Shown: positions 2,100-64,000, counted from the stretch's first letter. The stretch: 64,000 nucleotides of DNA from Raillietiella orientalis (GCA_036172245.1 JAYWIR010000006.1:4526001-4590000); one strand, 5' to 3'. A program made the numbers and translations. Notes: generated by a model from the sequence alone, not told the origin.

Positions 2100-5000
2100 C
2101 GGATAAGAATTTAGGATTCGATATGCCATTTCGCTATTCCCGCATGATCTTGTGTACGTAACGCTGATAAGAATAAATCTTAGGTAAGCATGGTAGGGAA
2201 TGATGGAAGATCATGATGGCATGGAAAAGGAGTGAAACAGACAGGAGAGTAGTCAGACTTTGGCGCGTTCGGAAGTTACGCTTCGAGGGTAAATATGAGA
2301 CGAAGACATTCTCATGATTGTGCCCGTGAAAGGGGACACCTCGAGTTAGGATTCACTTGACCTGGTTCAGCTCTTGTTGGCTTGGAAGTAAAGGCGGTGG
2401 GAATGGTAAGAAGGATGGAAGCAATGGTTGCGGTGGTTCGCGTGAACATTAGATGTGATACAGTGACTTTTCTGTAGTTCTAGATAATGGTACTGGAAAG
2501 GTGAGACTGTTTTTCTGCAGAAGCGTGCGTTACGGCTAACGAATGTCTGAGAACGCGATTTTGACGTTGGCGGTGTTCAGAAGTGATGAGGGAGTGCTGA
2601 GTGGTCGTCGATTCCGATTTGGACGTCGTGGTCGAGAGGAAAACCACTTCATGTGCCGCGAAAGACGCAGCTGTGCCCAGAGTATTTACTCCGCTTGATG
2701 CACACAGATCCGTGGGTGCCAAAAAGAAGCAGAGAACTTTGATGGGAAACGGAGACGCTGCGAAACGATCTTCCTGCGTACTCAGAGGCGTGGCGAACGT
2801 TCTGCCGTAAAGCACCTCGTACGAAGCGGCGTCCAGGTCACGTGAGCAGATGACCGGTCATAAGCAAGTTTCCCGCGCCCTGGAGACGAAACAAACCAAC
2901 AAGCTGCGTGCAGGATCTCTTATGTCAGCCTAGCTCGCTCCCTGTTCACCTAAGGCTGACCTCCTCAGATTGCTGTCTATCGTGCGACTCTTTTTTCTGT
3001 GGAAAACTAGAAGTGCTGAGATGGAAACTGCAGTCATCTCCATAACTCAAGCTTTGAAACCTTCAGAGCAGCTAATTAAAGCAAGAAATAGATAATGGGT
3101 CAAAGCAAGTGCGCGGGGCAGCTAAGTATCAAATGAGACCACGTGACGGCACTCTTCTGGATTTTTGATCGACCACCCCTTCCGCTTGATGTGGACGCGT
3201 ATTTCTTTTTACATGAATTTATACAAATGCTTGGAGGCATGGCACAGTTCCAAGTGTAGTGAATGCACAAGGTACATTGTCTAATGCTTCCTCAATGCGG
3301 AGAGGGTCTCTGGCATTCATGGAAAATCACTCAAGAAGCACCAAGGACGCCAGTAAACCATAGCAACTTTTAGGATGGTGCGACGGTTGCGTAAAGCTCC
3401 GGAGTGCTGCTCGGGCGATCCTTTTTCTCGCTCCTGCATTCAGTTGACGACCTCTGGCAGTGCTGAACAGCGTGCAGGCTGCTGTCCCTGCTAGGATGTC
3501 TCATGCTATTGCATGATCCTGATTCCGAAGGTCGAAGAAAGTGCGGGTTTGAATAGGAATCACAGCACCACGGCTACGAGGCAGTCACGCGAAAAAAGCA
3601 AGCAAATTTGGAGAATACATAACTTCATAGGAGGCCTGCTATCTCTACTAACAGTGGCGGCTTGAATTGCTGCTCTCGAAGAAATCACTAGAGCATTGTC
3701 TTCCTCACGTTACAAAGCTGAGGTTGTACAGCACAGCAGGTCGCCAGTTCACGATGCGTGTGGAGCGCGACGAGGAAACTCAAGGTGTCATTTACAGGCA
3801 AGATCTGAAAGGCGATGCTCGCGTGGTGTTTAGGCATCCTGCCCAACGCCACAGGAACAGCATCCAGCTAATCGCATTCACATACTTGTTCAGCAAGCCT
3901 GACCTCCACCTGCTGATCAAACCTGGAGATATCTGGCATTCAGAAGGGAAAATGCCCTCAGGGCAGCTTGATAAGAGTTCTTGTGCCGAAGACCAGAAAA
4001 CAGACGCAATAAACATGCAGAAGGCTGCACACGTTAAAGAAAATGCATGGTGTGTGCGCGTAAGCGCCGGCAGGAATCGCTCGGCATCGCCCCCTTTTCT
4101 CTCACAGGTGTGTCACGGGGAGCTGGCACACGCACCTGTTGCACAGAAGTTCTTGCTTGGCATTCTCTTCTTCCAATGATTGCAGACGCTGCACTGCCTG
4201 CACCAAAAAGATCGAGATTCCCAGGACGCAGCCTGCATCTCGAAACTCACCAGCTGTAGGTTTTGACAGGAAAATTTGTCTCCCGCCTCTTTCATCTGCC
4301 TTCAGGAAGATGTGATGAGAGTAGCCGCATTAATAAACCGCGGTTTGTACTGCATCTCGGGTATGGAACAGTTCTGGAGCGCACTGTCTTCACGTCACTT
4401 TGAGGACGGAAGCTCCGGTAACGATTTGAAGCCGCGCTGCTTCTAAGAGCGGTGTCTTCAAGAGCATTCGTTGCTGATATGAATGTCACAGGAGATTCGG
4501 TACGAATACAAGGAGATCATAGTATTTTTCCTGTACGCTGGCTTCTATCGGTTGCATTTTCCAGGCGCTTTTCTTCCCTGCGCTGGGTTTCCTTTTCGAA
4601 GACTTCACGTGCAAGACAACCCGACCTTGCAAGAATTCCCCACCGCCGACACTGAGCTTTTCTTCTATGCAAGGGATGGTGTTTGTTCGTCTCGTGTGGT
4701 CTGGCGCCCAGCCTTTTGTGCAGCAGTGTCCGTCTCCGGCTCGATATCAGCAGGACTTCAGGTATGAAGAAACGTTGAACCGATTTCAGGGAAGATTAAG
4801 ATTCGCTGGAATCATAGATAAGGCATCCCATGATGCAAGAGGTCGGGCAACGACGCTCCGTTCGCTGCCGCCCTGTGGGGATTTGTCCTCGACCCTGTGA
4901 TGATGGGAGCCCACGTGCAGAAATGGAGCAATCAGCGCTGATGCGCAAACGTGCAGAAAGGGCACAAGATAGCGAAGCAATTGAACGGATGGATGTGTTC

Positions 5001-5190
5001 TTCCGTCGCTTCATCTCACAGTTTCCTTGTTGTGCTTCCTATTTGTGTTGCGCGTACGGGAAAAATGGCCGTGCTCCAAGAAACTTTGCAGGTGATTGAA
5101 AAGGTCGTTTTCGCCGTTCCTGTAGTGGATCCGGTGCGCCCCTCCGGTTCAACTTCCTTGCCAAGGTCGAAGAGTTTTTCGAAGGTTGAT
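2100..5190 (-). mobile_element. Heavily decayed Ty3/Gypsy-like pol remnant
   Basis: Degenerate motifs in RT-RNaseH-integrase order on the minus strand: MPYL*FQR, YYDLLVFVPNL, LQIVTGAS, SYEVLYGR. Many stops and frameshifts. Boundaries approximate. Confidence 0.4.
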
Positions 5191-5199
5191 GCTGCTGCT

Positions 5200-5870
5200 T
5201 CTCACACGGGTGCGCCGGGGCGTTTATTACTAAACTATCCAGGAACAAAGTTCCCGGACAAAGGACACAGAAGAGACGAAGGGGGTGGGATCCCCGACGC
5301 GCAGGTCGGTATACCGAAAGTCCGGAACAGGAGGGAGGGGACCACAAATACACTTATAAAAAAATAAAAATAAAGATAAGGGAGGGTAGGGGACAGGGGT
5401 CTTTGGTGCGGCCGTTCCTTTCTTTCAGAACCGGCTATGGATGCCGGCGATCTCGCTCCTGACGTCCTCTGGAAGATGGGCCCACTCGGCAGCCGACGCC
5501 ATGTTAATGCCGGCTATTCCGACGACGAATCGCCAGCTTCTCCAGCTCTCGGTGGGCCTTGTCGATGGCGCGGGTGCAACAGACCTTTGCGATGACAGCA
5601 CCTAAGGACAGTCCGCCTGTCGTGAAGAAGTGTGTTGGCGAACCTTGGCCATCGCAGCGGAGTACTGCAGCACCCTATGGTACGTTCCCGCACGTCTCCT
5701 CGCCATCCATAAGGCCACGACGGAAGGACTCGAGTCTTTCCTCACGTGCTTTCGTCCCAAGATGCGAAGATGAGGTCTTCTCCTGGGTCGCATGGTCACC
5801 CTGGCGAAGGAGAACGACTGGGGATGCTCTGCTGACCCACCAACTCTAGCGCCTGGCTAGAGGAGACAGT
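5200..5870 (-). mobile_element. LINE 3' fragment, same subfamily as 130-745
   Basis: Clear nucleotide homology with 300-740 (e.g. cctttgtccgggaac..tgttcctggatagttt) and the shared terminal motif. Confidence 0.75.
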
Positions 5871-5914
5871 TGGTACGTGGGCGAAGATAAACGAGCCGAG
5901 AAGTGAGACGTGGA

Positions 5915-6710
5915 TTTTCACCCGGGTGATCCGGGGCTTTTATTATTAAAATTTTTTCACGAAAACAAAAAAAATTTCATAATAAAGTCCTTTCTTGTCA
6001 CTCTAGTTTTTTTTTTTTTTTCAGTTAGAACATATGTTCCAACTGTCTTGGGACACTTGTCCTTACCGACCCGCTGGCCGGTAAGGTCCACTTCACGGGC
6101 TCAGGGGAGGGGAAAAACAGAAAAAAACACACACAAAAAAAAAAGAAAACCGCCTGGGGGGGGACAATGTTGTTTGGGGAGGGGAGGGAAGGGAAGGGAT
6201 CACGGTGCGCCGTGAGGAGGCCTCTGCATCCGGTTTTGGATGCGAACAAGTACCGGAAAATGTTTTTCAAGTCGGCACCAACGGGAAGCCTTCTCCAAGG
6301 AGATGGCTGCCCAGTGGATGGCATTCCGACTTCTTCCTCCTCTCCTGGTTGCGGTCCATTTATCCAAAATTCCGCGTATGCAGCAAAGCACTGCTACACA
6401 CCCGGCGGCTGGCATGGCGTCCCGCATCAGGAGGTTTCGAAAAATGTTTTTCGGGTTGCCCACCGGAATGTTTAGGGCCGACGAGAGTCGATCCCACATC
6501 TGGCGGAGGGCAACACACTCGATAATTAAGTGGGGGAAGGTCTCCCTTTCCCCACACTCTGCACAGTGGGCATCGACACTCCCTGAGGTCCAATGAGACA
6601 GGCGTGCTCTGCTTAAAAGTCCCCAATGGAGCAGAAGCAACGCCGTCTCCTGCCACTGCAGGGGGAAGGTGCCGTGGAACGGTGAGACGTGGAACTGCCT
6701 GTGATTCAGC
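5915..6710 (-). mobile_element. L1/Tx1-like LINE 3' fragment
   Basis: ORF 6200-6712: WQETALLLLHWG...HCAECGERETFPHLIIECVALRQMW. Ends in the AATAAA-GCCCCGG terminal motif at about 5915-5944. Confidence 0.75.
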
Positions 6711-7715
6711 AACTACGTCCGCTGCTCGCTTCGGAACACACCGGAGTGTCCCGCCAGGAGTACGCGGGCGGAGATGGCCCCCTTCGCTACGGCGATGCCC
6801 TTCCTGAAGAGGGCACTTGGCAGCAGCCAGACGCCGAGGTGGCAGGTCTCCTGCAAGATTGCAGGCAGGTAGAAGCTGATTATGAGTGGTTGGACCACGG
6901 GACAGCTGGCGGATGCAGCGACCCCGAGTGTTCTTCCGCGAGGATTGCAGCGCTGGGGCGAGCTGCTCGGCATTCCATCGGAAGACCTGGAGTGGCCCTT
7001 CGTGCTGAAAGACACGAGCACCCTGCCTCTGATGTGGCAGGCGTCGGCGCTTCTGCTGTTGTTGCACTGGGGTTTCTCCTGAAACGCGCACTGGCACCGC
7101 TGGACGCGGTGGGGGGTGAATCCGGACTGTGGCAGTTGCGGGGAATGGGAATCCATCCCGCACCTGCTAGTGGACTGTGTTGCCCTCCGATCCCTATGGG
7201 GACGTTTTGCAACGACCCTCCGTACCCCGGTTGGCACCCCCCCCCCAGGGTCGTTTTACGGCTCCTCTTTGTGCGGGACGCCCTGCTGCCAGCAGCAACC
7301 ACAACAGAGCTGTGCTGCATCCGCGGGATCGTCCCCGCGGCATGGAGCGAAGTCGACGGAAGAAGAACAACGAAAGGGACGCTGTCCAGTTCTCAGTTCG
7401 CTTCCTGCGGAGAGCGTCCAGATGACCCCACCTGGGGATCATTCGGACGGACCTTGCTGGCATCCTAGAATGGATGCAGACTCTCTCCAGCGGACAGTAG
7501 CCTCTCCCCCCCCTCCCAAGTTTTTTCGTTTATTTTTATTTATTTATTTATTTTGATTTTGTTTTCTCCCATTCCCCTCTGCTGCCGAGGTTAGCCCGCT
7601 GGTCTGCGTACCGGCGACCCGGCAGGTCCACTGCTGAGTTGGCCGTAGTGGGGTCTCGTACCACGAATGTTGTTTCTTGAAATCAATGAACGCCCCGGCG
7701 CGACCGGGTGACAAC
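6690..7715 (+). mobile_element. L1/Tx1-like LINE 3' fragment
   Basis: WQASALLLLLHWG...DCGSCGEWESIPHLLVDCVALRSLW with frameshifts. Terminal motif at 7685-7714. Confidence 0.75.
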
Positions 7716-8830
7716 TCCGGAGGGAGCCCGCAAGGGAACCGCTCGTTTACCCCCCTGAAGAAAGCCTCGAAGGGAGGCTTCCGAAATTCAGAAGAGTGCA
7801 GCTTCCTCGAAGGGATTGGTTTCGCTTTGCATTCTCTGGAGAGGTGACGACACACCGACTCCATCAGTACGACGCGGAGGAACCCCCTGGAATGGGGAGT
7901 CCGCTCCTTCACAACCGTAGGGGAGCTCCCACTCTTTGATTCCTGGAAGGACTCGGAGGTCGACTCCCATGTGTCCCAGCCTTCATCCGGGGCATCCGGT
8001 TTTAACCGCTACTCGAATGAATGGAGGCCAGCCAGTGCCATCTTGGGGAGGAACTCGAACCCACGACGCACTGCGTCGATTCATTTCAGAGTATTCGAGC
8101 CCGCGACGCTTGGTGGTGCCACGCGCGGAGACCTCAGCAGCCACAAAGCCTCCGACAACAGTGAGCTGCGTTTTTCGCCAAAGGTTAAAAGGCAAAGCAG
8201 CTGCAGGAGGAGGAAACCGAAGAACGGACTTGGAAGTTGGGCGCCAGCAGTCCAGCTCCAGTAAAGGGAACGGAGGAAGCAGAGGAGCATCACAGATGCT
8301 TTGGAACTCAGGCAGTCTCCCAGCAGCCGGCAGCATCCGTCTCGAAAATTCAGACGGTGGCGCGCGACCAACCAATCTCGGCAGTCGGCTCCACGCTTCG
8401 GGCAGACCCAGAACCCCAGAAGCAACGCCCTATCCTGGCCCCTTCGGATCCTCGAGGACTGCCTTCCCGGGAGATCTCCTACAGAGTTCGAGAAGAGAGG
8501 AAAGCGGGCTGCGCTCTCCTGGTTTTCTCCGGAGGGTTGCAGGCATCGCTCCGAGTGTGCGCGGTGGACTTCCTGGGTCCCCGAATCCCCTGGCGGGATC
8601 GGAGAAGGTACGGAAGGAGAGCAGGAATTCTACAGAAGCTCCGGATCCCTCTCACGCAGGAGGGTGGGAGGACCGCACGAGACACACCCTGGTGTGCTCG
8701 ACGAAGCCGTGTGTTCGCAGCAAGCATCCTGACCCGTATCTGCATCAGAAGAACGCAACGCCGTTCCCCGGGAACGTATGCTGGGAGCAGTCACGGCATC
8801 CAGGAAGCCTCGTCAGCATGAACACCGCTC
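7715..8830 (-). repeat. Unclassified GC-rich dispersed repeat, copy 1 (carries tRNA-like B-box motifs)
   Basis: Colinear patches of homology with 58570-60560 and 62420-63960 (e.g. cacctctccagag, ggttgtga, cctggatgccgtgac, gcgtcgcggg.tcgaat). Confidence 0.6.
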
Positions 8831-9627
8831 CACTGATGGAAGGATAACGGAGGCAGGGTGGGAAAAGGGAATTTGCGCGCGCATCCCAAACCGCGGACAA
8901 GGGAACAGAGCCAGTTCCTCATGTGGCAACGCACTGCTATTTATAGAACACCAATGCGTGTCATATGTTTACAGAATACGAACCAATGCTCACATGTTTG
9001 CAACATTCCCAATTATTTCAGAAAATCGGTGCGGACGCCTCCCCTCCCGCTTTGAATTCGCTTTCCCATTCCCTAAGCATCCCATCTTCAGGTTGCGACG
9101 AGTTACGAGGTGGACGGCACGCCGGCCGAGCTCACGCGACGGCACCACAAAGCACAACACTAGAAAACGAAGAACTTCAGGACCTTCTGCGCCTACGAGA
9201 AGGCAGGTGCGTTTTTTTTTTTGACCGCCGGTGCTCCGTGAACGAACACCGCGTGGGACACCATGGTGATGATCGAGGGTGTGCTGGGGGGTGGGGGGGG
9301 ACCGAACGCGGGACTCGCCTTGCCTGCCGCTCGTCGGTGCAGCGTGGACGAGGCCCGCGCGCGGGATCGTCAAAGCTCCGCGTTCAACGTGGGCGCGGAT
9401 ACGCGGATAGCCACAGGCGTGCGCGCGCCTGCATCCTCCCACGAAGGAGTGCAACCGCAGGGAACGCAAAGTTTCCACGGCAACGCATGATCCCTCCACC
9501 GCTAAGGTGAGCTCCCGACGGTGTGTGCGCGCTTCAATGCAGCAGATGAAAAGTACGCACTTCCGGACATTCATACATTTATTACATCAATGTATAAATC
9601 AAAACATGATAAAAAAAAAAAAAAAAA

Positions 9628-9760: not shown

Positions 9761-12700
9761 TCAAGGCTCTTCGTCTTCTGATTCGCCTTGTCCATACATG
9801 TCGGCCAGCTTTGCGAAACGTGGACCCCAATTGTCCAAATATTCGAAGTCAAACTCGTTGTCCTCGGAACCGGAACCCAGAGACGACAAAGAACCGGACG
9901 TGCTGCCGCCGCCCTCGTAGGCGTAATTTCGCAGGTCGTCGTAGGGCGGGGACGTGGGATCCAGGTCTGCTTTAATCTTGTGGGAAGATATAAACACGCC
10001 GACATCTGTTATGGGCATGGAGTGATCTGGAAGGCAGGGCGTCCGATCGCCGCAGGCGGGGGCGATGCCCACTCACAAGTAGGGGGCTTCCGCGGATCCA
10101 AATAGAAAGGCAGTGGCTTTCCCGCCAGGTCAATCGGAATTTGCAACGGGGTGATGTCGAAGGCGGTCATGTCGTCTTCTCCGCCTCCCTCATCATCGTA
10201 GCTGATGATGTTTTCGCGCACGTCGTCATCGGGACCGGGGTATTTGAAGTGCTCGCTCTTGCGCCGGTTGTACACCACGAACACCAAAACGAGCACTGGA
10301 ACATTCATTGATTACCGACTTGACTTGGAGGCCCGCACGCCCGATGATACTTACACAAAAGACTAAGCAAGCAAACAACTAGAACTATGATGAATTCATT
10401 TGTTACCCCGAGCTGAGTTGATCCCAGGGACTCTAGGTGGCAATCCTGACCAGCATGGCCTCCGGGGCAATAACAAACATAGCCTTTGCCGTCAGGCAAG
10501 TTATGGCAAGTGCCTCCATGCAAGCATGGTTCCGCGAGGCACTCATCAATGTCGACACAACGGTCATGCATTTGGACACGCATGCCAGCAGGACAGCTGA
10601 ACAAAAGGAGAGACGCATGCAATGAAACATACTTACAGAAATCCGTCACAGGAACCCGGGAATCAGGACCAGAGATTCAGAGATTCGAGGAAAGCAAAGC
10701 AAACGAGAGCGAAGAGAGGAAGAAAGAGGAAGGGGCCATGCAAAAAGCACCACAACCACAGTACTACACGTACCACAACTGAATGGAAAAACCTACCCAG
10801 AATGAAAAGCAGGCAGACGAGGATAGCAGCAAGAAATCCTGTGCTAAAGCGGAGAACGTGCCCATCCCGTAGAGCACCGCAATTAGCACCATAGTAACCG
10901 GAAGGGCAGAGGCAATCAAAACCAGGATCTCGATTAATACAAGTGCCGCCATTATGACAAGGATCCAGCAAACATTCATTCAGATCCAGGCAAGTATTGG
11001 ATTCCGGCTCGAGGATACGACCTTCGACACAGCTACACCCCACAGAATTACAGAAAGAAATACACAGTTTTCCAAAAAACAAAAAAAAAAAAACCAAAAA
11101 AAAAAAAAAACAAGCAGTCAATAAAGGAGCTCATGAGCAAATAGAACAAGATGGGTGACTTACGTGCATTCATACTCCATCCACAAATCGACACACACAA
11201 AAGGACTAGGGCATATGACATTGGCACAAGGACTGTTTGAAGGACAGTCTCGTTTCAGGTTACGGTACATCGTGGCTTGACCCCACGGTGTTCCATTGAG
11301 ACCGGGAGGTAAAGGCAAATGCCGACCTTCCAAACGGATGTCATCGAGGCAGCCTAACACAAGAATCAAGTCACCGACACCACGCGGTGGAGCAAAGCTT
11401 TGCCTTTCTGGAAATCTCCGAACACTTCGAACGTGCGTACACCAGTGTACTCCGCTTTTCCACCCGCATAGACACCTTCCTGTTTGTCCACGGACATCAG
11501 CTGATGGCCTTCAAACACAAAGGTCTCGTTATAGCGCCTTCCTTCTCCACCATCCAGCTGCAGAATCGCTGCCGACCCGAATCTCTTAGCACGCGCGATG
11601 TGCCATTGACCGTCATTGACCATGACAGCCGTTAGCCACAAGACCCATTCTTCGGTGCGCAGAGAATTCAGATTATAGCGAAAGCGAAGGTGACCATCCT
11701 GAAGCTGAGGAATCCCGACAGGATGTCCCGTTCCGGGCAGACTTTGCGGCTTACCTCTAGAATGCCGTACTCGCGGTTATGTTGGTCACTGACGCGGAAG
11801 AGCTCCCCTCGCTGTTCTCGAGTACGGAAGCGCAGCTGCAGCTCGGTTAGGAAGCGCCGCGTCTCGAAGGAGAGCGCATATTTCACGTAACTTTGCTGGT
11901 CGAACGCCGTCGGCATGGTAGGTACGTCACAACCGGGTCCGGACCACCCGGGGTGACATTCGCAGCGCGCGTAGGACATGGAGGCTGCGCAAGTTCCGTG
12001 GTGGCCACAGCCAGATGACTCTATGGCATTTCCACTGCACAATTCTTCGGTCTGAAGGCATCCCGGGTGGCTGTTCTTCCACTGGCCGGGATCGGACAGG
12101 TCATACAGCTGGAAGCGGCCCGAATACACGCAAAGCAAACGATTCCCGCCTACCTCGCTGTTGAGCATCAGATTTCGAATGCAGCCTTCGAACGGCCTCC
12201 CGTACGGGATCGCGGACCAGTGAAACACTTCCTGGTTCAGAGGATCTCCGGAAATTCCTCCCAACTGCAACGGCGTGTTCAAGTTTAGGTATTCGCTGAA
12301 AGGAGGGATGAGTCCGGTCGCATGGCAGGACAAATTGTCGAAATGGGGTTCGGAGCCGTCCTCAAGTTCGGTGACATCCGAGGTACGACAAGAATCCACA
12401 ATCAAGGAAACCCGTTCTGTGTTCCACAGAACATCCAGCCGGTGCCATTCCCCATCAGCCAGACTGGTTCGCGTGGCCACCCGGAGTTCCAGAGTGCCAG
12501 AACCGAAATCGATCAGCAGCCGGGGCTGCTCGTTCTCAAGCTCCAGGGCGATGAAATCGGAGAGGATCACCTCTTCGGGTTCGGGGGCAACTATTGGTCC
12601 ATTATAAAGAAGCAAGCCATCGGACTTGATCGTGATAAACTCGAGGGTCAGGTGTGACGATTCACACATGGACAGCGGAGGAAACCACGCCCATCCATCG

Positions 12701-15700: not shown

Positions 15701-18700
15701 GAGACGGCCTTTCTCTTTCAACCGGAAAAAGCGAAACGCAAATGATGTGACGGAGAGAGTGTTTGGCCGTCCAAAGTCTCGAACGCTTCGAGTACGTGAC
15801 GTAGGCCGTTGCCAAACGACCGACATGTGTCACGACCGCGAGTGAGGAACATGAAGATCACTCAAAAAAGTCAGTAGCGACACCCGAGAGGGATGGCACG
15901 CGCCACCACACACGCGGTGGAGAGAAACCCGCGCCGCCGCCGACCCATTCCTGTCCGCTCGTTCGTGGATTCCCGAAACGCGTAATGCACGAACCTTGTC
16001 ATTAACTTGAATCTTGAATTTGAAGCCTCTCCTCTGCATCGGATCTTCGTAATCCAAGGGCTGCACGATCTTCAGCGATCCCGTCCCGTCGCTGTTGCGA
16101 ACCATCGTAAACTTGTCCGCTCCGAATCCCGAACTTTCCAGAACTTTATAGTGGAATTTGTTCGTCTCATCTTCATCGAGCACGGTCACGGTCAGGATCG
16201 GAGAATCGGGAAGGGTGGGTATGGACATGTCGGTTTCATCAACTATCGTGGTCCAATGATCTTTGCTGAACTGAGGAGGCATGTCGTTTATGTCTTTGAC
16301 ATGTATGGACGCCGTGCCGGTTCCTACGGAGCAGTGGATTCAGGAACCGAGTTCCAGCAAACGCACAGATTCGTTTATACAATGTCTGCGTACAGTGGTG
16401 AAACCATAGTGCCCTCCTAAAATACGGGGCAAAATACGAGGCACTGTACCTTTAAGTCCTCCTCCATCCATTGCGACCACCTGGATGGTATAGTCCGGGG
16501 TCTTTTCGCGGTCCAAGCAGCAAACGGCCGTTTTAATGACTCCACTCTCGGACTCGATCTCGAAGATTGGGCGACCCGTGTTCTCATCGATGACATTCTT
16601 GTCGATAGAGTAGGAGAGTTTGGCGTTTCCACCCTCGTTCGGATCGTCATAATCCACGGCTGTCATCGTCATGACCACCATTTCTACAGAGTCAACCCAA
16701 CGCAAATCACGGCACGTCGAGCGCGGATGCCATACGTTCCGTTCCGTTTTCCGTGACATTTCCGAAATAAATTCCTTGGGGGAAGAAGGGGGCGTTGTCG
16801 TTAATGTCCTTCAAGTTGACTTGCACATCAGCGTAGCCCACAAGCCCTTCTCCTCCTTCGTCCTGTGCGAAGACGGTAAATCGCCACTGGGGTCTGCCAT
16901 TCGGCTCGTCACGATCAAGGGGCTGGAAGAACGGAACACACCGTGAACACCGCACCACAAAGGAGGTTTAGGAGGAGATTCGGTACGATGTGGCAGGACA
17001 CGGACGACACTTTACCTTCAGCACGTAAATTTCCCCGGAAGTCCGGTTCACATCGAATTTACTGTTTGCGGGACTGGCAGGATCGACACCTTGTCCGGTC
17101 AGAAAATACACGATGTTGTGCGGCCTGTCCCGATCGCCGTCCGTCGCCGTCACCTACCCAGGACAGCACATAAGCACTCGCAGAAACAAAACAAAGCAGG
17201 AAGGAGGAAAGACTAATAGTGCTTGCAAAATAAACCAAAAGGATGCACCATGCTTTCGTGTGCTGCACACAGACTACACCTCTGCTGTCAACGCAGCAAC
17301 GGTTTCCAAGTTTCCAAGAAACACACGCACGCGCACACGCACACGAAAAAGGGAAGAAAAAAAAAAAGAAGGATAAACTGCAGTTTACTCGCAGCATAGT
17401 GTCATTTCTCAAAACCACGCAAACATCCACAGAATGCGATGAAGCTTTCAGGAAAGTGCTTTGAATCTTTTGCTGTGAACGAGTACACTGTACCTTCAAC
17501 AGTTTGGCTGGCAAACTTGAAGAAAACTCTTCCTGAAGCTCTGCGTAATACGTGTTTTCATCGAACACTGGAGGCAAATCATTCACATCATTAACGCTGA
17601 TGACTACTTTTGTTTCGTTCTCGTTAAGGCTATCCGAAGCAACGAGAGTCAACTCATACTAAATCATACAAAGCAAAACAAAAAAATAAGAAGCAGAAGT
17701 GGTCATGCGAATGCAAAAATGTAAAGACAAAAAAATTACACAGTGTAGCAAAACATGTGTAACATGCCATCTAGCAATACATGTTTCACTGCTCATTCAA
17801 TAACCTGTAAGATTCGTTTGGGCAGGTTGCGATCATCTTCTTCCGTTATTTGTGTTTCGTACACAGGTCTGTCAAATACTGGAGGATTATCATTGACGTC
17901 TTTAACATGGATAACAACTGTGGTATAATTTTCATTCAGATTATCCGAAGCAACTAAGCGTAGTTCGTACTGTTCCATGACATTAATGAACATGAGAAGA
18001 AAACATTTTTTTTTAAAAAAAAAAAAAATGAAAACCAGTGGTAAGCAGCAGCACGTACAATTGTGCTGATACAAAACATTTTCTAAACAAATTTCACAAG
18101 TAATGCAAGACGTTCAAGACATCAGTCTCTAACATTATGGGAGAAAAATTACAATCTGATCACAAACTTCTGGCTACCAAACAGGGAAAGTCAGTTACTC
18201 ACCCTTTTCCTGGTCTCATAGTCCAAGGGGCCGGCAACGTATATGGCACCTGTCATGTTTTTCACAGCAAAAGCGCCGCCGAAGTTGCCCTTCGTTATTT
18301 CATAACGAATGCGAGATGCTGCATGAAATTCGTGTGAACAAAGAGGAAAAACAGAAATCTATCGGTACAAATTCCGCCAAAAAAAAAGCACTCCCGGCAC
18401 GCACCTCCGCTCACGAAATCGAATACGCTCTTCGATCAACAGCCATTAGCAGTCCCTTCATCCTTCGCAGGGATCAGTAATAAAAAGGAACTCACCCACA
18501 GGCAGACCAGTTCAAGAATCAGGAAAGCAGCAGGAAAGATCGCCAGAAAGCTTTCCAGATTCACACAGAGGGAAAGTTCAAAGTTCACATAAGAATCAAA
18601 ACGCTTGAAAGAGAAAAAACGGAAGAAACAGAGAGAAACTGTCAAAGGGGAGGGAAAGCAAGGGGGGGGGGGGAAGGAAAATTTCGTTCATATCTTTTGT

Positions 18701-18721
18701 ATACTTAATGGCAGGCATCAA

Positions 18722-18782
<61 letters not shown>

Positions 18783-21700
18783 TTCGGACAAACTGCAGAG
18801 ACTCCGAAAGGAAAATGCAATGACCCTTCCGACACACTTTCTATAAACAATCGATCAAAACACACACACACAAAACATCACGCATCACGTGTGATGTTTA
18901 CTGAAACCTCAAACGACGTTGGGGAACGCGAAATTCCCGACCTGCAGCCACCGATTCCCCCTTTGGTGAGCTTCACTTCTGAGCACCTTTGCAGCGGCTG
19001 ACGACACAACGGAATGCCGACGGCCTTCTGACCCACTCGCGCATCGCAGCAGCAGCACACAGCTCGTGAACAGAAAAGAGAAGCGAAGTACACCTTGTAC
19101 ATTCCCTTCAGGAGCTGGGGGAGAAGAAAACAAATCCGCCTCGATCACTACGGGCTTTGTACACTAAAAGGCGCAACCCCAGAATACAGCAGGACCCCGT
19201 ACAATTCGGGAGATGTGTTCCGCGTTATAAGAACCCTACGGGTAATACATAGCATATGATTAAGAAAAAAAAAAAAAAAAACAGTAGAATATTCATTATT
19301 TATTACACTTCAAAACAAAACAATTGTGTGTTTTACCACTTAAATTCAACTGGGGGGGGAGGAAAAAAAAAAAAAAACAAACTTTTCGAGTTGTGTCGTT
19401 ATTCTATCAACCAAAACCGCTCCGTGGTTTCGGCTCGATCCCTCTCGTTGTCGAAAGATGTACCTTCCCGGTCCGTTTCATCCACGAAAATCTGCACCAA
19501 ATGGGATCGGACCCGCTTGGACCACGCGCACGCGTCCTTTTCGAACACAGCCGAACCGAGAGTACACCACGACACGGAAATGTGTCCCCAGCGCCCTGCG
19601 AGGCTGACTTACCGCGTTATGCGAGCACTGCAGCAATCCTTCGCCGTGGTCGCGTTATACGAATCTGCTTCGTACGGGGGCCTACTGTACTTTAAAAGGA
19701 AGCAGCGTCACCGATGTGCGATTCGAACAGTTTGTGCCGTTTCAAAAAGAAGACCAATATGTTTGTGGCACAAACCACTTTCGGACTGAAAATTCATCTA
19801 CGAAAGAACGGAGGCGTCTGCAGACGTGCCGTGTGCATCGAAACACACATACTGAAAACACTGGTAGTGTGCGTGGTATTACACTTAGGTGCAGTTTGGT
19901 GGGGGAGGGCGCAGATACCGACAATACCAATAGCATATGCGGTACACACGTTAAGAATGATGTGATGGTGGGAGGATGGTGGCAGAAGAGAGAGAAATGT
20001 AGAGTAACACCGAAAGATTCGTATGTTATTGTAATGTGTGAGGTCGAAACAGTTCAACGAGAACGACCACTTGGGGCATCGCAGGTAGTTCTGGCTTCGA
20101 AAGTATGTGACAGGGTTGATTGGAAGCTGTGCACATGGGTTTGTGGAATGGGTGGTTACGCTAATGGAATGGTCAACTCTGCGATTAGGAGGGTCAGAAT
20201 GAGAGAGACGGTTGATGATTTTGGGTTATAAATGTTTGCTGCTACGTTTGGGTTGTGGCCTTTCGTTAGTAATGTTCTATGGTTGGCAGTATGTGGAATG
20301 TGGAAGGAAATGTTTTATGCTTCGAGTATTTTGGTTCGTGGTGAGAATGCTGTTATTAATTACGAGTGGTGGAATAGTAAGAATTACTTCAGGATGGGAT
20401 GGATTGGGGACGGTTTCTTATCGGAATCCCTGAACACATGCAGGAAAAAAAGCACACCGCTTGCGGTGTGATCCAAAACTACCTCTACAAATACGATTAA
20501 ATAAATTGTGCTTCAGGGAATGTTTTGAATTTCGATGTTTGGCACCTCAGTCTCCACAAACACGGAAGGCAGGAGGGTAAACTGCAGCTCAAAGATCAAA
20601 AGTGGAACATCGAGTTGCTCAGTTTATATGATCACGGGAATGAGAGAATTCGGATAAAATAATCGACCAACAACTTGGCAGCAAAAGGGGAAGCACGAGG
20701 AACGCAAAAGACTTACATTCGTCATTGTCCTTTGCAGTGACCGTCAGAACAGTATGCTGAATGTCTTCGTTCTCGTCGACCTCGGCTTCGTACAAAGCCT
20801 TATCAAAATAAGGCGGGTTGTCATTTTTATCTGCGATGCCAATGCGGATGAACTTGGTCACTGAAACACATTCGAGAGGAGAGAGATGAGCTGCAGGAAG
20901 CGGATACGGGGAGGGGGAGGGTCTCCAACGCAACATGCACTCCATCAAAGCCCTTCCGTGTCGAAGAGTCCGGTTCTGCACTTCGATGTGTACACGGAGC
21001 TCTCGTTCGCATATGGAGAGACAACGCAAGTGACCTCGGAGGATCCGAGTGCACAGAAGAGTGCAATCTCGCATACTTGGGGTGTGTTCTTTTTTTCTTC
21101 TTGCAACTTTGACTTGAATGTGTGAATTGCTTGCGATCCGACAATCTTAACGATAATTAAAACTGCCTGCTATTATATGTATTATATGTATACATTGTCT
21201 TATGTAAGGAAAACCAAATGTTGGGGGGAAAAAAATACAGAAACAATAATCGAAACCGCCTTTTTTTTTCTTCTCTTTTCTTTTTCTTTTGCTAAGAGTC
21301 CCCCACATTTCCTGATATCCTCAAAAAAATGACTGACTCCTAAAAGGAATCTGAAAGGGCAAACATCATTTCCCCTGCCCTGATCGCGGCCGATTCCTTC
21401 GCAAGAAATGGGCAGTTTCGCTGGAGACAAAGAACAAAAAGATTAAAGGAGAGAAGAGTTTGTATTCTCCACCCCTCCCTCGGATTCAGTTTTCCGCATG
21501 GCCTCGAGAAAAGACCAAATCCGGGAACGAGGCTAGACGAAATTCGCAAACCGATTTGCAGCCACATACCGTCATGATACTGGTGTGTCATGATAATCAT
21601 CATCACGACACATCCAAAGGAAATACTTTCTCTGGGGGTTCGACGGCTTCCCCACAACCCGGTTTCGATTCCAACAACCTCTTGTTTTGGTTCCGACTCA

Positions 21701-24700
21701 TAAAGTCAGGCGAGAGCTGAACTCTTTCCCGCCAAGGCGATGATCCACTCGTGGATGAATGCCATTTACTCTCAAAATACGTCCATTTAGGCGTTTTATT
21801 GACCTTGAGATTCGCCTTGAATCACGGAAAGGAAACAAACAGCAACAAGAAAGGAACGCCGTAATCACATCGATCCCACCTCCTCCCTGGAAACCCAACG
21901 GCTGGCCACTTTCTTCGAGAACCTGAATGGCTCAAGGTTTCGGCGTCGTGTAAGGGCACGAAGACAAACCCGCTCACGGTCTCCCAAGATTTTATCCCAC
22001 CACAGAGGGAAGCTTTCCTTGGACTACCATGTCGAGCACAAAGCAGTTCGTATTCCCGAAAGTTCGTTTGCTCACTTTCCGATCACCATCAACCTCTGAT
22101 GCTTTGTCCGTCTAACCCTCGTTCGCTTTAAGCATCGGCACGTACTTCCCTGAAGAGCTGCTGCCGTTTTTCCTGCGTACGTTCCAGAGTTCCATTAAAA
22201 GGTGCATGAGCCTTGGAAATGCCATTTGCGGCCTGCTGTCCAGTATTCCAGACCGACCGTCCCAAGCCAAATCCTTCTTTTGCAAGCACTCTCGTGCTTG
22301 ACTTCGAGGTCCCACGAAACTACGGATCGCGCAGCAATACGAAGTGTGGCATCCGAGCCACACGGAAAGGCAATTCCGACGTTCTTGAATCACATTCATC
22401 ACGAAGATGTAATCGAAAGGCGCTTAAAAGAATCGGCCCCACTGCTTTGCTATTGAACTGAGGTGCTTCACAGCTCGCCGGGAATCCCAAAAGCGGCTTT
22501 CCAGAAAGTGGAGCTCCGCCCTGGATGCGCTGGAGTCGAAATTCTCTCCGGACAGTCGTTTCAGCTTTCCCAAAAGGCTGGACCGTTCCAACTGCAGGGT
22601 CGCAGTACATGGCGGTTACCCCATGAACTCGTTGACCGGAGTTCGTGAGAAAATCGCCATGTCTCCTTCCCTGTTACGGAACGGTTTCCCCTTTCTCCTG
22701 AGGCCGATTGCCACGCCAAGAATCTTCTTCTTCCTGCTCCTCGCAGCCAGCCTCGAAAGGCGCACCGTTTACGGTGAGTACCTACAGAACAGGCCGCGGA
22801 TCTACGGAATCTCCAAACCCAAGCTGAAGTTTAAGGCGAAAACAACGTCTGCGACTTATCGGGGAGAAGAATGACGACGCCTTGGACCCTTTTTCGCAGG
22901 CTTGTCTGCAAGTCTGTGGCAGTGCTTTTCCCCTTGTCACGGTAGCCAGGCATCATGTGGGCACAATGTGCTTTACATATAAAGATGCAAGCAGTGCATG
23001 GGTCTGCCACTTACTCACGACGTGGCCACACGCATGGCGTATTCGTATTACTTGATCAAATTTATATTTTACGAATCGCAGGGAAACTGCCGCACAAGTG
23101 AATCCTGCACCTTCTTCTTGTTAAGGAAAACCAATTGGGCTTCATCTCCTTAACCTTTTCGTTACGACGCAACTGGTCGTCAGAACGACACCGCCGAACG
23201 GGACTCCGTGCCTGAGAGCGTGCACTGTCCGCGTGGACAGTGTCCCGACGCCCCGAGTCTGTCGTCTTACGCCGGCGTACGAACTGCGTTTGGTACAAAG
23301 GAGTCAAGAGTGACAATTAGCACGTTTCAAATGAGTCCATAACACAATTAATAATTTGGTAAATGAATAGAATTCGGTAGGATATACTTTAAAACGGGGG
23401 GGACTACCATCAGCCAACATCACGGTCTTCGCAGTGACACCTCGATTCGCGCCTTTCATCGTTTTTCTTGCAAACAACGCAACTTCGTGATGGATTTTTT
23501 CTCTGCTGATTTATACGGCGAAGGATAATCCTTCCGGCGAGTCCACTGGGATAATGATCGCCCCGTGTACTGGGGTGATACGACTTCGTTTGTATTTTTT
23601 TTCCGGTATTTCTTCTATTAATTTTAGCTGAAGTTTCGCCACACAGACACAGCTTTTTCAATTTACGTAGACAGCAAGCATTGCACATGCAAACATCGAT
23701 CATGTGGAAACAACACAAAAAGAAATCACGACACCACTTTAAAGTTTTTCGTGTTGACGGAATCGTGCCTGCGGCTGTATCGGCTTTGCAGCTGAGACCG
23801 TCGGACAGTTGCAATCCTTCGCATGAGCAGCTTCCTGAACGGTCCCTCCCTCTTCTGCAACGTCCTGGCACACCTACAAACTCTTCTGTGCGCACGGTGG
23901 AAAGCATTTCAAACTGTCCCTTGCCAACCCATTTCATAACCTGCTGCAGGACGGGAAAAAAAAAAAAAACCTATGAGATCCCCCCCCCCCTTTTTTTTTT
24001 AATTTTTCGTCAATCTTCGACACGCCCCCTTTCCTTTAATGTACCGTACGAATTCGCAGCATTTCTATAGGTACCAGTTGCCTACGTAAAGCGTGCGGCC
24101 TCTTCCTAAGTAAGGACCTAAAGGTGACAACATCCCACTTCCAGACATATTCCGACATCTTCATGTGGAGTACTTATGCTAGTACTGGATCCGATATAAA
24201 TAATAAAATCTTGAGCATAGCTTGTTTTACAGTCGCAAGGAATGGATGATTCTACGCCAAATCGATTCCACTTCGATGGAATAAATGCTTAAACGATAAT
24301 CTGCCTTTGCATAGGAGCAGACTTTCATCTGTACATAAGTTCTAGATATGGGTAAAACGAAAACACTGAATGATGTTCGTACTTATGGATGAACTTTATT
24401 CGTGCTTTTCGCATGTTGTGTACAGATTATCAGGATTGGATCCGTGCTCGTCCGTAAAATTTTTAACAGCAATGAGTAGCGATGGATCATTTCGTGGATG
24501 CCGGCTATGGACGGTATTAGGAGCGAAAAGGGTTAAACAGTATGTAGGAGCTGCTACAGGCAATAGGCAGTTTCCATACGTTATCAACCAAAAAAGGCAA
24601 CCGATTCACTTGGCCGCATTTAAGTGGCCTCTTTTCATGAAAATCAAAATAAATATATCAATACAATCAAAGCATCAATACCAGTAGATTAACGCTCATC

Positions 24701-27700
24701 GCAGATTTAGCAGGAAAGCATCCAAATGGACAGCGTAATTAGAAAGTTCCCAAGAAAGCAGCAATCAAGGGCATTCACAAAACTGTCTTTCAGCATCAAC
24801 CGCTGTTTGAATCAATTCAGACCTTACTGATCCCAAAACTTTAACAGCCCCTGAGAAATGCGCTACCGGCAAAACTTTAGACTGATGCAATTCGGAAATA
24901 TGGCATTTGCGTCCAAAATTTATCTGCCCATAAAATCAAAGATTTAATTCAATAAAATGTAGCAACAAGGAAGACATGCAAACGATGTGGTCTCCAGCAT
25001 ATTAAAAGGTCTACATCCTTAGAGAGTGGAAAAAATGGATCATAATGAAATGATAAATACATGGATACGACAAAAATAAACGCGCAGAATCTGTAACAAC
25101 ATGATTGGAGTTTTTCTTTAAATAGTAGATAGTTAATTCGAACTATCCTGCAAGCAAAACCACTCATATTACCACATGTTACTAAATTTCCTTGACTTTT
25201 TGATTCAACTGAATGAATTAAACCTTCTCTCTGAACAAAAACACAAAACGATACTTTAACGGAGCACACTTGTCAATCTTTTTTACAAGTATACGAATTC
25301 CAAGCATATATACAAAAAAAATACTTTTCAAAACATGCAACGTGTGTTTCCATCATGCTTTCCATTTCCGCCAAGATAAATTAAAAAGGCTCCATTTTTT
25401 GAATCGTTCAAATAAGGAGTTAAAACCCACTGAACATCCGTCCCAGTTGCTTACTGGATTCTTCCTTACATCCTAGAATTTAACCACATTTTTCCATGTT
25501 TTTCTTTCTTTACATTGTGTTAACTATTCTGTACAACTGATATTTGAACAGTGCGGACTCAAACCGTGAAAATGTATGAATTTCAGACATGGGGTACTTT
25601 TCTAACTGAGTGCATGGGATAAAATCTCTAGATGTGAGATAACTTTATACTAAATTTTGCCCAACAACGCTGAAAATGACTTAATTTTAAAAAATTATGA
25701 ATCACGTGCTGATCATGATGTCATTCACGTATAACAACTGTATATTGCTTAGTTCCGTAAAAAACTTCATAGGGATGAAATGCAATACCTGTATTGGGTC
25801 TCCCGTCACTATTAGGTCTTGCAGATGGGGCCCCATCACGGGCTTCTACTTCAAGAGCATAAGCTTGCTTCTGTTCTCGATCAAACACAGTTTTTGTAAA
25901 CACGACACCTGTTTGTTCGTTAATTTCGAAATAATCTTTGCCTTCATTTCGGGGCGAATCCACAATGGAATAATACACTTGGTTATTTGGAAAAGTTCCA
26001 TCTTTATCAATAGCATGAACTTCAGTCACTTTGGTGCCTACTGGCTCTCCTTCCAATACAGTTTCTTGCTCACGTTCTGTAAACAACGGTATCTCATCAT
26101 TAACATCCTCCAGAATTATATGGATAGTAGCTTCTGATGCAAGCTGCTGAGCTCCATTATTTTCAACACGGATTGTTAAATTGTATTCCTGAATAGTTTC
26201 ATAATCCAAAGGATGGTTAACTCTGATATCAGCCCAAGTGTGTCCATTATCCAGTCTTTGTTGCACGTAAAAGGTATCGTGTTTATTCGTTTGAGGGGTA
26301 GATCCACGAATCAGGCGATAAAAAACTGTTGGATTGTCATCGATTCCAGACCTACAACAACATAAAAGTCCATACATATATAGCAACTTTGAGATCAAAA
26401 ACATCGATAAAGAAAACGTGGTGTGCAAAAAAAAAATAAAATACACTTCACAAATATCGACATATGCATTTGTGCATAAGGCATGCAAAGGTCCAGGTGC
26501 GAGCACAGACCTTGCCTTGACCGATAGTATCCGAGACCCTACAGCTTGATTCTCACGCACATAAATAGGGCCATATACTAGCTGATCCCATTGGGGTGGT
26601 TTGTTAGCACGATCCACTACATTAATTTGAACTTCGACACTTCGTGTTAGTGGAGGTATGCCTTTATCCTGTGCAACAGCTTCAAGCCTGTAGCTTTCCC
26701 GCTACCCAAAAACATTACCAAAAGGTTAGTTAGTAATAGTTAGTAACACACAAATTGCATTCAATCACTGCTATCAGGGCCACTGCTTGCTTATTCCTAA
26801 AAACCAAGGCACCACCCCCTTTGGATCTCTATTATTACCTGGCATAAACTGAAGTGATTGTACTTCCTACTAGTTGATTTTCAGGCACATACAATGGGCT
26901 GGAGATGGTTTTTGTCCAAATAGGTGGTTTATTATTGCGATCAACAATATCCAACTCAACATCAACTTCTGCCCATTGAGGAGGATGGCCACGGTCTTGA
27001 GCACGCACCCGTAGGTGGAAATGCTCATGCTAAGCATACCCCAAAGATACACAAAAGATAAAACACAACCTTTGCATACAAATAACAGTGGAACGCTAAA
27101 TTTTGTGGTTTTTTGCTACAGAATGCCCATATGGCTAAAACGATGGGAGCTGTTTGTCAATATTGGTACAGGAAGAGCACACATTTCAACTTATCAATAC
27201 TTACGTCTAAAGGTCTCTTGAGAGTGATCCAACCAGAATCTTGCTGGATATCAAAATAATGTAGATCAGAAGGATTACTAGATGCATGCAACTGATACAA
27301 AATAGCTCCATTGCTGTCAGCATCTTCATCTGATGCAGATACTCGCAAAATATTAGCCCCAATGTGAGTGTCCTGCTTCACATTCTCGACATATTTCTAT
27401 GCTTCACATTAGATGGCTACCAATACAATCTATTTAAAGCTAACCTGACGATCAAATAGAGGAGGATTGTCATTTACATCCGTTATTTCTATAGTAAATG
27501 AGCAAACTCCTTCCAAAGAAGGTTCTCCTTGATCAGTAGCCTTGACAGTGACCGCCACAAGCTTGCCATCATCTCCTTCTCGATCAAACACTTTGTTTGT
27601 GAACAATTCTCCAGTATCTGCATCCACAGTAACTTTTGTGCCTTTCTGATTAGGCTGCTGGACAATGGAATATTTCACTTGTCCATTTATTCCTTTATCT

Positions 27701-39027: not shown

Positions 39028-44780
<5,753 letters not shown>

Positions 44781-57474: not shown

Positions 57475-57610
57475 GGGGATTCGGGTCACGGACTCTTCAA
57501 CTAAGAGCTTTACAAAGAGAAAGACCCTGAAGCGGTGGAGGGGGATTCAGGTCACCGACTCTTCAACTAAGCTTTACAAAGAGAAAGACCGTGGAGCGAT
57601 GGAGGCGGAA
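57475..57610 (+). repeat. Tandem duplication of about 65 bp (2 copies)
   Basis: ggggattc.ggtcac.gactcttcaactaa..gctttacaaagagaaagacc repeated twice. Confidence 0.9.
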
Positions 57611-58569
57611 GGGGGATTGCTCCTGTCTTTTTTCCTTCTGCTTTTTCTTTTCTTCACTCTCTGGGTCTCGAGAAAGATTTTCCTTTTGGCTCTCTTAGGT
57701 CTCGAATCTGGATGGAACTTTTTGCTTCACTTTCCTTTCCACTCGGCATTTTGTTTTTTGTTTTCCTGCGCGTGCCTTTTTTTCCGAAATCAAGTCCTAC
57801 TCCTCCCAGAATCAGCTCAGCCTCTGTGGCCCGCTCTCGCGGACATCTCTGGCTTGAGCAGCTTCCGGAGCATCTCCAGCTCATTCGCCCAAGACGAAAG
57901 CGGGTGCACTCGGCGTCCTGCCAGCGTCCTGAATTCCGCCGGTTTCGCCGGCGAAGGGGTCGCGGCCCCTCCGACAGCGTGAAGGCATCCACTCCAGAAG
58001 TCGCGGTCCGCGAAGGTGAGGCTCGTGAACCGGCGGACGGAGGGAGCCCCACACACACCGGGGAACGAAGGCGGCTCCAGGCGAGACCGCTGGCGGCTGT
58101 CCTCGGCGGCAGGCAGGGCATCCGGTTCACTTGCCTGCCTCCAGGAAGAACCCAAGGTCTTCCCCTCCGCTCATCATGCGCCGGCCTGCCCTCGGGACTG
58201 GACCCCGAAGAGGCTCCCGGAAGGGTGCTCATGGCCGCCGCGGGGGCTAGAGCTGCCACCGCATGGCTGGAAGGCCGTTCGACTCTTCAGGGGCGTCCGA
58301 CGTGTGGCAGCCAACTCCCAAGAACCGGCTCCCCGACCACCGTCCCTCTCCGAGGACACTGGTCCTTGTGTCGCTCCCGGGCTTCGAGCGCGCAGCAGCA
58401 ATGCTCCTCGCTTCGCTTTACTGGACAGTGGCGACCTGGCGGGGAGATTGTTGCTATTGACCTGGAATAATGGAGATACTCCTGGGGTTCTCCCCTTTTC
58501 GGTGCTTCCCTTCCAGCTTCTATCCTTTTTTTTTTGGTTCTCAAGAGGTGCTGAAGAACCACTAGCCTT

Positions 58570-60560: not shown

Positions 60561-61339
60561 TCCAGGTGATCTCGCGCCCGAAACCCTTCTGCACTCATCG
60601 TCGCGACCCTCCTACTAGCCATAACCTGACCACCGTGCCGTCCTCCGGAACGCGTTGGGAACGGCCTGTCTCGGCGGTTGGGCGCAGGCTCCACGCTCGA
60701 GAGCCACTCATCTCCAGGGCCGGCTGCTTTGGCAGATGCGTCGTTGCAGGCACTCCTTGGCGGGTCCCGACTTCAATGGCCACCGTCCTGCAGTCCATAA
60801 CAACCAATACCTTTCATGGGATCTGGCGTACGTTACATAGGGTGCCGCATCTCGTCGGCGTTTTGTTCATCCCGCAGCACCAGTTCTGCTCACCAAAATG
60901 GACTTACTGGGAGCCTGTGGATCCGACAGTCCAAGCTTTCAACCATGCCGGATTTGTCATCCATTTCAAGTTTGATGATAGGTTGAGGTCATGTCGGCCC
61001 CAAGGCTTTGAATCATTAGCTTCACCGGATGAGGATCCATTCTTTCTTCCGCTCCAGCGAGCGCTATCTATCCTGAGGAAAACTTCGGAGGGAACCAGCA
61101 GCTAACCGGATGGTTCGATTTGTCTTTCGCCCCTACACCCAGCTCTTATCGATTGACATCGCCCCACCAGTTTCTTCTTCTGGCTTCGTCCTGACTGAGA
61201 ATAGGTCACTATCTTTCGGGTTACTCTGGGATGTTTGTTAACAAAGAAAAACAAACTGCAAGTGAGAAGGGAAGAAGAGCCTCCCTCGAAAACGAGAAAT
61301 GCCAAAAAAAGTTTATATGGGATGACCACCGGCACGCAG

Positions 61340-61510
61340 ACTGGCTTCTATAAAAGTAGGGAACGGAGGGAGGGGACAATAGATAAATGACAAAAGACGG
61401 GAGGGTGGGGGAAGGGAGTCTTTAGTTAAAGACGTTACTTCTATTCTGAAAGCGACTCAGGATGGTGGCGATCTCCCTTCTTCTGGCAGAGGAGTCCACC
61501 TTGCTGCTGT
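61340..61510 (-). mobile_element. Degenerate LINE 3' UTR fragment (subfamily of 130-745 and 5200-5870)
   Basis: Aligns by eye to 5320-5480 (ggaac.ggagggagggga...ggcgatctc). Confidence 0.55.
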
Positions 61511-61699
61511 CCTCATGAAGGCTGATGCCATGTTGACTCAAAAATGAGAAAGTGAAGTGAAATGAACAGTGGAAAACAAAACCAGTGCAGTTGTTAGTGG
61601 TGAAAATATAGAAAGGACAGAAAAGACAGATAGTTGTTTGTTAAAAGTTCAAAGTTTGTTCCAATAAATTCACTCCACCGCTTGTCGGACCTGGGGACA

Positions 61700-63960: not shown

Positions 63961-64000
63961 CCCCCCCGCTCTTTCCAAACAAACAAAAAATTCTTCCCGA

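Follow-up and report, generated by a model that had tools for sequence, protein, structure and literature searches.

A tandem exon pair in the N-cadherin gene of Raillietiella orientalis very probably corresponds to the known arthropod mutually exclusive exons ME-7a and ME-7b

The N-cadherin gene of arthropods is known to carry three sets of tandem duplicated alternative exons, ME-7, ME-13 and ME-18, which, according to Hsu et al. (2009; PMC2655722), are conserved in Drosophila, Anopheles, Bombyx, Tribolium, Apis and the crustacean Daphnia pulex over a divergence dated to more than 400 million years, 13b and 18b having been lost in Apis. The published sizes of the ME-7, ME-13 and ME-18 exons are 63, 54-55 and 68-70 amino acids (aa), respectively, and the a and b variants of ME-7 are approximately 50% identical in Drosophila. 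The same paper states that the first Drosophila N-cadherin complementary DNA (cDNA) represented the 7b-13a-18a form, that a developmental switch between ME-7a and ME-7b takes place in fly and beetle, and that synonymous rates in and near the alternative exons are very low, which was taken as a sign of cis-regulatory elements; splicing motifs were addressed in follow-up work (PMC3303723). In this work, we analyze a pair of tandem exons, A and B, in a stretch of 64,000 nucleotides (nt) from Raillietiella orientalis (GCA_036172245.1 JAYWIR010000006.1:4526001-4590000; hereafter, the window), where the gene is read on the minus strand. We argue, with a probability of about 0.93, that the two exons are the mutually exclusive exons ME-7a (exon A) and ME-7b (exon B) of arthropod N-cadherin. 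In the order of transcription, the region consists of the following elements:

27205..27396, minus strand: upstream constitutive exon (equivalent of Drosophila exon 6), 192 nt, phase 0 to 0
26839..27029, minus strand: exon A, assigned as the ME-7a orthologue, 191 nt (63 codons + 2 nt), acceptor ..gcttag, donor CAG/gtaata
26702..26838, minus strand: intron between 7a and 7b, 137 nt, with two tactaac-like branch-point motifs approximately 25-40 nt before the 7b acceptor
26511..26701, minus strand: exon B, assigned as the ME-7b orthologue, 191 nt (63 codons + 2 nt), acceptor ..gggtag, donor AAG/gtctgt
25789..26351, minus strand: downstream constitutive exon (equivalent of Drosophila exon 8), 82-85% identical to its insect orthologues over approximately 188 residues

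The anatomy of the pair and its frame logic are direct observations. The upstream exon ends at a codon boundary (..KRPLD/gtaagt), and in the frame set by it both A and B are free of stops, each being preceded by AG and followed by GT; a pyrimidine-rich tract lies ahead of the exon A acceptor, and the introns around the pair measure 175, 137 and 159 nt. After A and after B alike, an AGG codon is completed by the base at 26351, with which the downstream exon begins. Over 63 residues, the two peptides share 50.8% identity (blastp E = 2.6e-18 in a small database of the gene's own open reading frames, ORFs). Equal length, equal phase, adjacency and 51% identity, taken together, are far beyond chance. 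The initial annotation had described two tandem stop-free 191-nt exons with AG/GT ends, 137 nt apart, and the coordinates, translations and splice ends all agree with our reading. It had also argued that only one exon of the two can be used, and this is borne out by simulated splicing: upstream exon + A + downstream exon and upstream exon + B + downstream exon both stay open into the next exon, while the message with both A and B runs into a stop 18 codons into B and the message with neither does so 4 codons beyond the junction. Since 191 is not a multiple of three, a messenger RNA (mRNA) with both exons or with none meets an early stop.

The gene itself spans from ~33298 to ~9764 on the minus strand. 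Its minus-strand ORFs match the Pfam families PF00028, PF00008, PF02210, PF24811 and PF01049, i.e., cadherin repeats, EGF, laminin G, the DE-cadherin Ig-like domain and the cadherin cytoplasmic domain (the latter with E = 1e-28), and the upstream exon matches positions 3-60 of 93 of the Cadherin profile (E = 3.5e-9). By this domain content and the named matches given below, the gene is an arthropod N-cadherin (type III classical cadherin) with a putative membrane span. The 159-nt intron following 7b (26352-26510, minus strand) happens to be stop-free and in frame with both of its neighbours, which yields a 326-aa ORF from 26701 to 25724; retention of this intron would add 53 residues and cause no truncation, and we estimate the chance of such an open stretch at ~8%. 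This open frame, which joins exon B, the intron and the next exon, served as the query for the orthologue search, which covered proteins of 572-2000 aa and gave 133 proteins at E <= 1e-5. We used the best 120 of these 133, and the named proteins among them, down to approximately E = 1e-60, are all arthropod neural-cadherins. The next exon (26351-25789) is 82-85% identical to its counterparts in insects, 81-82% in Penaeus, 69-73% in myriapods and 60-69% in chelicerates. Quick trees of exon 8 place the window gene within Pancrustacea and outside the sampled insects, with weak support (0.64-0.89).

The published exon names were tied to sequence by translating the quantitative PCR (qPCR) primers and probes listed in Hsu et al. 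(PMC2655722). The Drosophila sets give VTVGTVV and SVKASSGIE for ME-7a and PVGGK and VSIKASS for ME-7b; the Tribolium sets give RENVTVGT for ME-7a and YGPIFI for ME-7b; the shared reverse primers of the ME-7 assays give NPTVFYR, IEGNPT and ENNPTVF. The segment aligned to A and B includes the Drosophila ME-7a peptides in D. ananassae (isoform X18), D. navojoa and Rhagoletis, and the Drosophila ME-7b probe peptide (VSIKASS) in D. tropicalis and Episyrphus. Two such segments stand in tandem in the models of Tenebrio and Asbolus, the first with RENVTVGT and the second with YGPIFI. In the orthologues, the exon just before ME-7 ends in ..ESGWIVLKKPLD, and the surroundings of ME-7 in named orthologues read ..GWIVLKKPLD, then ME-7, then SSGIE.NPTVFYR, with the window pair in the same position. 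The window pair shares with arthropod ME-7a/7b the length of 63 aa, the a/b identity of approximately 50%, the flanking exons, the a-then-b order, the class-specific residues and the part of the cadherin repeat junction that is encoded. It differs from them in the greater divergence of A, whose mean identity to insect 7a is 54.8%, compared to 69.8% for B over 23 insect 7b segments.

The place of the pair within the gene agrees with this assignment. Self-comparison of all minus-strand ORFs of at least 40 aa between 9000 and 34000 revealed exactly three adjacent pairs of like exons and no fourth one. A and B form the strongest match (27026-26838 against 26698-26510, 63 aa, 50.8%), the two others being 17969-17802 against 17658-17491 (56 aa aligned, 58.9%) and 10998-10879 against 10565-10440 (42 aa aligned, 45.2%); the remaining matches, at 26-47%, represent ordinary likeness between different cadherin repeats. 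The exons of the second and third pairs are as follows:

17805..17969, minus strand: ME-13a-type exon, 165 nt, 55 codons, encoding QITEEDD..PKRILQV
17494..17658, minus strand: ME-13b-type exon, 165 nt, 55 codons, 58.9% identical to the 13a-type exon over 56 residues
10797..11032, minus strand: ME-18a-type exon, 236 nt, putative boundaries, EGF-like region and hydrophobic, membrane-span-like stretch
10355..10596, minus strand: ME-18b-type exon, 242 nt, putative boundaries, EGF-like region and hydrophobic, membrane-span-like stretch

The second pair is ME-13, because its QITEEDD and PKRILQV agree with QITEEDD and PKRVLQV, which the ME-13a primer and probe of Drosophila encode; the third resembles ME-18 in covering an EGF-like and a hydrophobic, membrane-span-like stretch. 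The three pairs comprise 63, 55 and 78-80 codons, and the tandem pair at 27029-26511 is the first of the three and is ME-7 by order, size and content. The ME-13 and ME-18 pairs are likewise tandem duplicated alternative exons of the same gene, ME-13 lying at a later cadherin repeat junction and ME-18 in the EGF-like plus membrane-span-like region; the ME-13 exons, with 165 nt, are a multiple of three in length, so that their exclusivity is not enforced by the frame alone.

Which copy is which was inferred from comparison with orthologues. Of the 120 proteins, 103 gave at least one near-full-length ME-7 segment and 19 gave two in tandem; in 16 of these 19, A was the best match to the first segment and B to the second, and the first segments of the other three still fell within the 7a clade. 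The maximum-likelihood tree was built over 63 columns from the 86 named segments among 124 rows, with the 38 unnamed ones excluded, and it splits in two with 99/96 support. The 7a clade (40 rows) unites exon A with the 7a segments of flies and with the first segment of all 19 tandem cases; the 7b clade (46 rows) unites exon B with fly 7b, all the second segments of these cases, decapods, myriapods and chelicerates. So few columns leave many forks open, and the place of exon A inside the 7a clade is unsure. As a tree-free check, insect segments were assigned to 7a or 7b by the core words VDRNNKPP and VDRANNPP, respectively, which gave 31 distinct 7a and 23 distinct 7b segments; insect rows with neither word or of a length other than 63 were dropped. 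Thirteen positions were diagnostic in the sense that the residue differs between the classes and is at least 80% uniform within each of them, two of these positions lying inside the sorting words. At these 13 positions, exon A has the 7a state in nine cases, the 7b state in one and another residue in three, and exon B has the 7a state in two, the 7b state in eight and another residue in three. Residues 21-38 of exon A are on average 85.3% identical to insect 7a (n = 31) and 55.8% identical to insect 7b (n = 23). On these comparisons, A is shown to be orthologous to 7a and B to 7b. Searches with exon A as the query gave no orthologues: among proteins of 112-2000 aa there were 13 candidates, none at E <= 0.001, and among the protein representatives there were 2672 matches at E <= 0.001, the best 150 of which, ranked by summed repeat scores, are giant multi-repeat cadherins, none of them more than 48.3% identical to A or B (blastp).

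The initial annotation had placed the exons at a cadherin-repeat junction, and this holds: exon residues 2-28 correspond to positions 65-92 of 93 in the Pfam Cadherin profile (exon B, E = 4.3e-5), so that each exon encodes the end of one repeat and the start of the following one, together with the linker between them. With exon B, the ..LD of the upstream exon and the initial RE make up the putative Ca2+-binding motif DRE. The second putative motif of this kind, DxNDNxPxF, appears in A and B in a variant form that occurs in fly, beetle and other orthologues as well, i.e., the agreement is with the family and not with the literal pattern. A search of the PDB sequences with exon B gave 62 matches at E <= 1, with CELSR1 and protocadherins first, and no structure of N-cadherin ME-7 among them.

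Tandem 7a and 7b exons were also found in metagenomic loci. Scanning of metagenome contigs with the next exon (exon 8) gave 35 loci, and four of them, all arthropod (L014, L017, L018 and L029), contain a 7a-type exon followed by a 7b-type exon at a spacing of 500-800 nt, each exon consisting of 189+2 nt with AG/GT ends; the peptides of L017 and L018 are identical. The locus L002 is spliced-message-like from the signal peptide onward, and in it a 7b-type exon is joined directly to the next exon. The best locus, with exon 8 84% identical to ours, came without the ME-7 region. No close relative of the window was met among these 35 loci or in the protein searches made.

As for the 7b donor, its non-consensus form gtctgt (window 26505-26510) recurs in L017 (1660-1669), L018 (1669-1678) and L029 (2827-2836), the corresponding donor being gtctct in L012 and gtcgga in L014. 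This donor, which is similar to the bases that open the next exon (GTCTGG), could represent a weak splice site under conservation.

Two metagenome contigs of 111 and 29 kb carry chelicerate-like N-cadherin genes (L006, 1763-4939, and L010, 1688-4855) of a different structure: the exon-6 equivalent, one 7b-like segment and exon 8 are all contained in an intron-less ORF that exceeds 1000 aa, with no 7a copy. In the 86-row tree, the named chelicerate and myriapod segments are all of the 7b type (11 of 11). The absence of 7a from these two genes hints that not all arthropods carry the 7a/7b duplication.

Several observations speak against the assignment of the pair, and most of them concern exon A. 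It gives no Pfam match at E <= 0.01; it starts with HE, which puts D-H-E in place of D-R-E; it reads SSPL in place of the YGPI or YGPM found in nearly all other segments; and over its last 25 residues the identity to insect 7a is as low as 34.8%, no better than the 35.1% to insect 7b. In the tree, its end branch measures 1.36, compared to 0.4 for B and a median of 0.048, and the placement of such long rows is unsure. The ME-18-type exons are approximately 10 codons longer than the published 68-70 aa, their boundaries being putative. Finally, a 12-nt micro-exon 7a', paired with 7a, is reported for insect genomes and not for Daphnia by Hsu et al. (PMC2655722), and it was not found here: the 175-nt intron 27204-27030 contains no candidate of the form AG-12 nt-GT. 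This last difference from insect ME-7a/7b is not defining outside insects, as 7a' is reported for insects and not for Daphnia. The divergence of exon A weighs less than it might seem, because other 7a exons also score weakly against the Cadherin profile (E = 0.002-0.05, compared to 4e-5 to 1e-3 for 7b exons) and other non-insect 7a exons lie about as far from insect 7a: the mean identity to insect 7a is 59.9% for L014, 57.2% for L017 and 46.2% for Cherax, with exon A in between.

Beside the micro-exon, we note that the 7a proteins of flies and bees P0176, P0194, P0200 and P0211 have an insert GCYP or GCFP between ..KKPLD and 7a, which fits the 12-nt 7a' placed upstream of 7a.

A separate question is whether exon A is still in use in R. 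orientalis. We infer that both exons are used because A is intact and conserved, and we consider the use of A probable on the evidence of its open frame, exact length, good splice sites, pyrimidine tract and preserved 7a-specific core. The view of the initial annotation that the copies are strongly diverged yet intact is supported by our data, namely 50.8% identity, open frames in both copies and intact splice sites, and both copies are old. The alternative that survives best is that exon A is a decaying, unused ME-7a pseudo-exon and that the gene makes the 7b forms alone, in the same manner as the honeybee lost ME-13b and ME-18b, as reported by Hsu et al. (PMC2655722). The long branch of exon A, the low identity of its last 25 residues to insect 7a, the loss of the YGPI motif and the missing Pfam match would all be expected of such a relic. 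However, exon A is open over all its 63 codons and is exactly 191 nt long, its AG/GT sites and the pyrimidine-rich tract ahead of the acceptor are intact, the 7a-specific core is retained, with residues 21-38 at 85.3% identity to insect 7a, and the overall divergence is within the range of other intact non-insect 7a exons; we therefore regard a dead exon A as improbable. Reading the two sets of observations jointly, one may tentatively suppose, as a possibility with the odds still clearly against it, that the 7a linker core was kept while the 25 residues at the beginning of the next repeat were rewritten (~35% identity to insect 7a, SSPL for YGPI), yielding either a lineage-specific 7a surface or a 7a that is nearing loss. 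On this reading, the rewritten 7a and the single-copy ME-7 of L006 and L010 would jointly hint at 7a as the fast-evolving, dispensable partner of an ancestral 7b.

Much less credible is the origin of exon A from an independent recent duplication of a single ME-7 exon, with its 7a likeness acquired by convergence. Exon A is indeed barely closer to insect 7a (mean 54.8%) than to its neighbour B (50.8%), but the prevalence of 7a states over 7b states at the diagnostic positions (9/13 and 1/13), the grouping of A with 7a across the 99/96 split and the same 7a-then-7b order in insects and in the four metagenomic loci make this scenario very unlikely. The proposal of the initial annotation that the exons form a fourth, lineage-specific pair upstream of the exon-7-type pair, in a segment constitutive in Drosophila, retains practically no credibility, since the gene contains only three tandem pairs, the ME-7a and ME-7b primer peptides of fly and beetle fall in the segment aligned to this very pair, and the next pair downstream is ME-13 by both primer peptides and size.

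The segment that had been taken as constitutive in Drosophila in fact holds the published ME-7a and ME-7b primer and probe peptides of Drosophila; this view is probably explained by the first Drosophila cDNA, which carried 7b, exon B being the 7b orthologue, and for the same reason the Drosophila sequence used for comparison in the initial annotation matches exon B. The initial annotation itself had stated that an earlier description of the pair in other type III cadherins would take away its novelty, and such a description is given by Hsu et al. (2009; PMC2655722). The ME-7a/7b pair is thus already known, and only the host lineage is added.

Returning to ME-7a and ME-7b as the identity of the pair, the following mechanism may be proposed. 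One exon of the pair would enter each mRNA, and from the chosen exon the protein would receive the final third of an extracellular cadherin repeat, the linker behind it and the initial strands of the repeat that follows. Out-of-frame mRNAs with both exons or with neither would presumably be removed by nonsense-mediated decay or give no full protein. The choice is presumably made by regulated competition of splice sites, as in the developmental ME-7 switch of Drosophila and Tribolium. The distance from the 7a donor to the tactaac-like motifs is approximately 100 nt, and the 137-nt intron with branch points 25-40 nt from its 3' end should be long enough to be spliced, which makes steric exclusion unlikely; hence a steric block of A-B splicing is not expected. 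In the 961 nt around the pair, six pairs of inverted repeats were found, the best being 17 nt at 82% and 10 nt at 100%; a rough chance expectation for each of these two is ~0.5, i.e., they are not above chance, and for this reason we do not claim any docking/selector structure.

Dscam and muscle myosin heavy chain are other genes with mutually exclusive exons derived from tandem duplication. The window pair is similar to them in having homologous adjacent exons of the same length and phase, with one exon per mRNA (here, as predicted from the frame). It differs in being a simple two-exon cluster with no competing RNA pairing above the chance level.

The upstream neighbour of the N-cadherin gene, on the same strand, is the gene of the RNA polymerase II subunit RPB2 (39031-42771, minus strand). 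Its 804-aa ORF has a best identity of 87-88%, with matches spread over arthropods and other animals and none closer in the database, and therefore does not place the animal. G+C-rich stretches at ~18700-23900, 5000-9600 and 57600-64000 contain long open frames in several frames at once and look like repeats or transposon remnants; one of them sits in the long intron that separates the exon near 20700 from the one near 18100, with a (GT)n run near 18720-18800.

The tandem arrangement of the exons also bears on gene models in databases. In 19 of the 103 arthropod models (P0153-P0166, P0178, P0186, P0192, P0198 and P0206), 7a and 7b are present in series. Such models are annotation errors arising from the tandem exons, as the product would be out-of-frame or mis-spliced. 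In practical terms, annotation of the locus calls for two isoforms, each with one exon of the pair, rather than for a model that has both in series. Beyond correct annotation the importance of the finding is small: it adds a further lineage, a pancrustacean whose close relatives were absent from the proteins searched, to those with the three sets of N-cadherin alternative exons.

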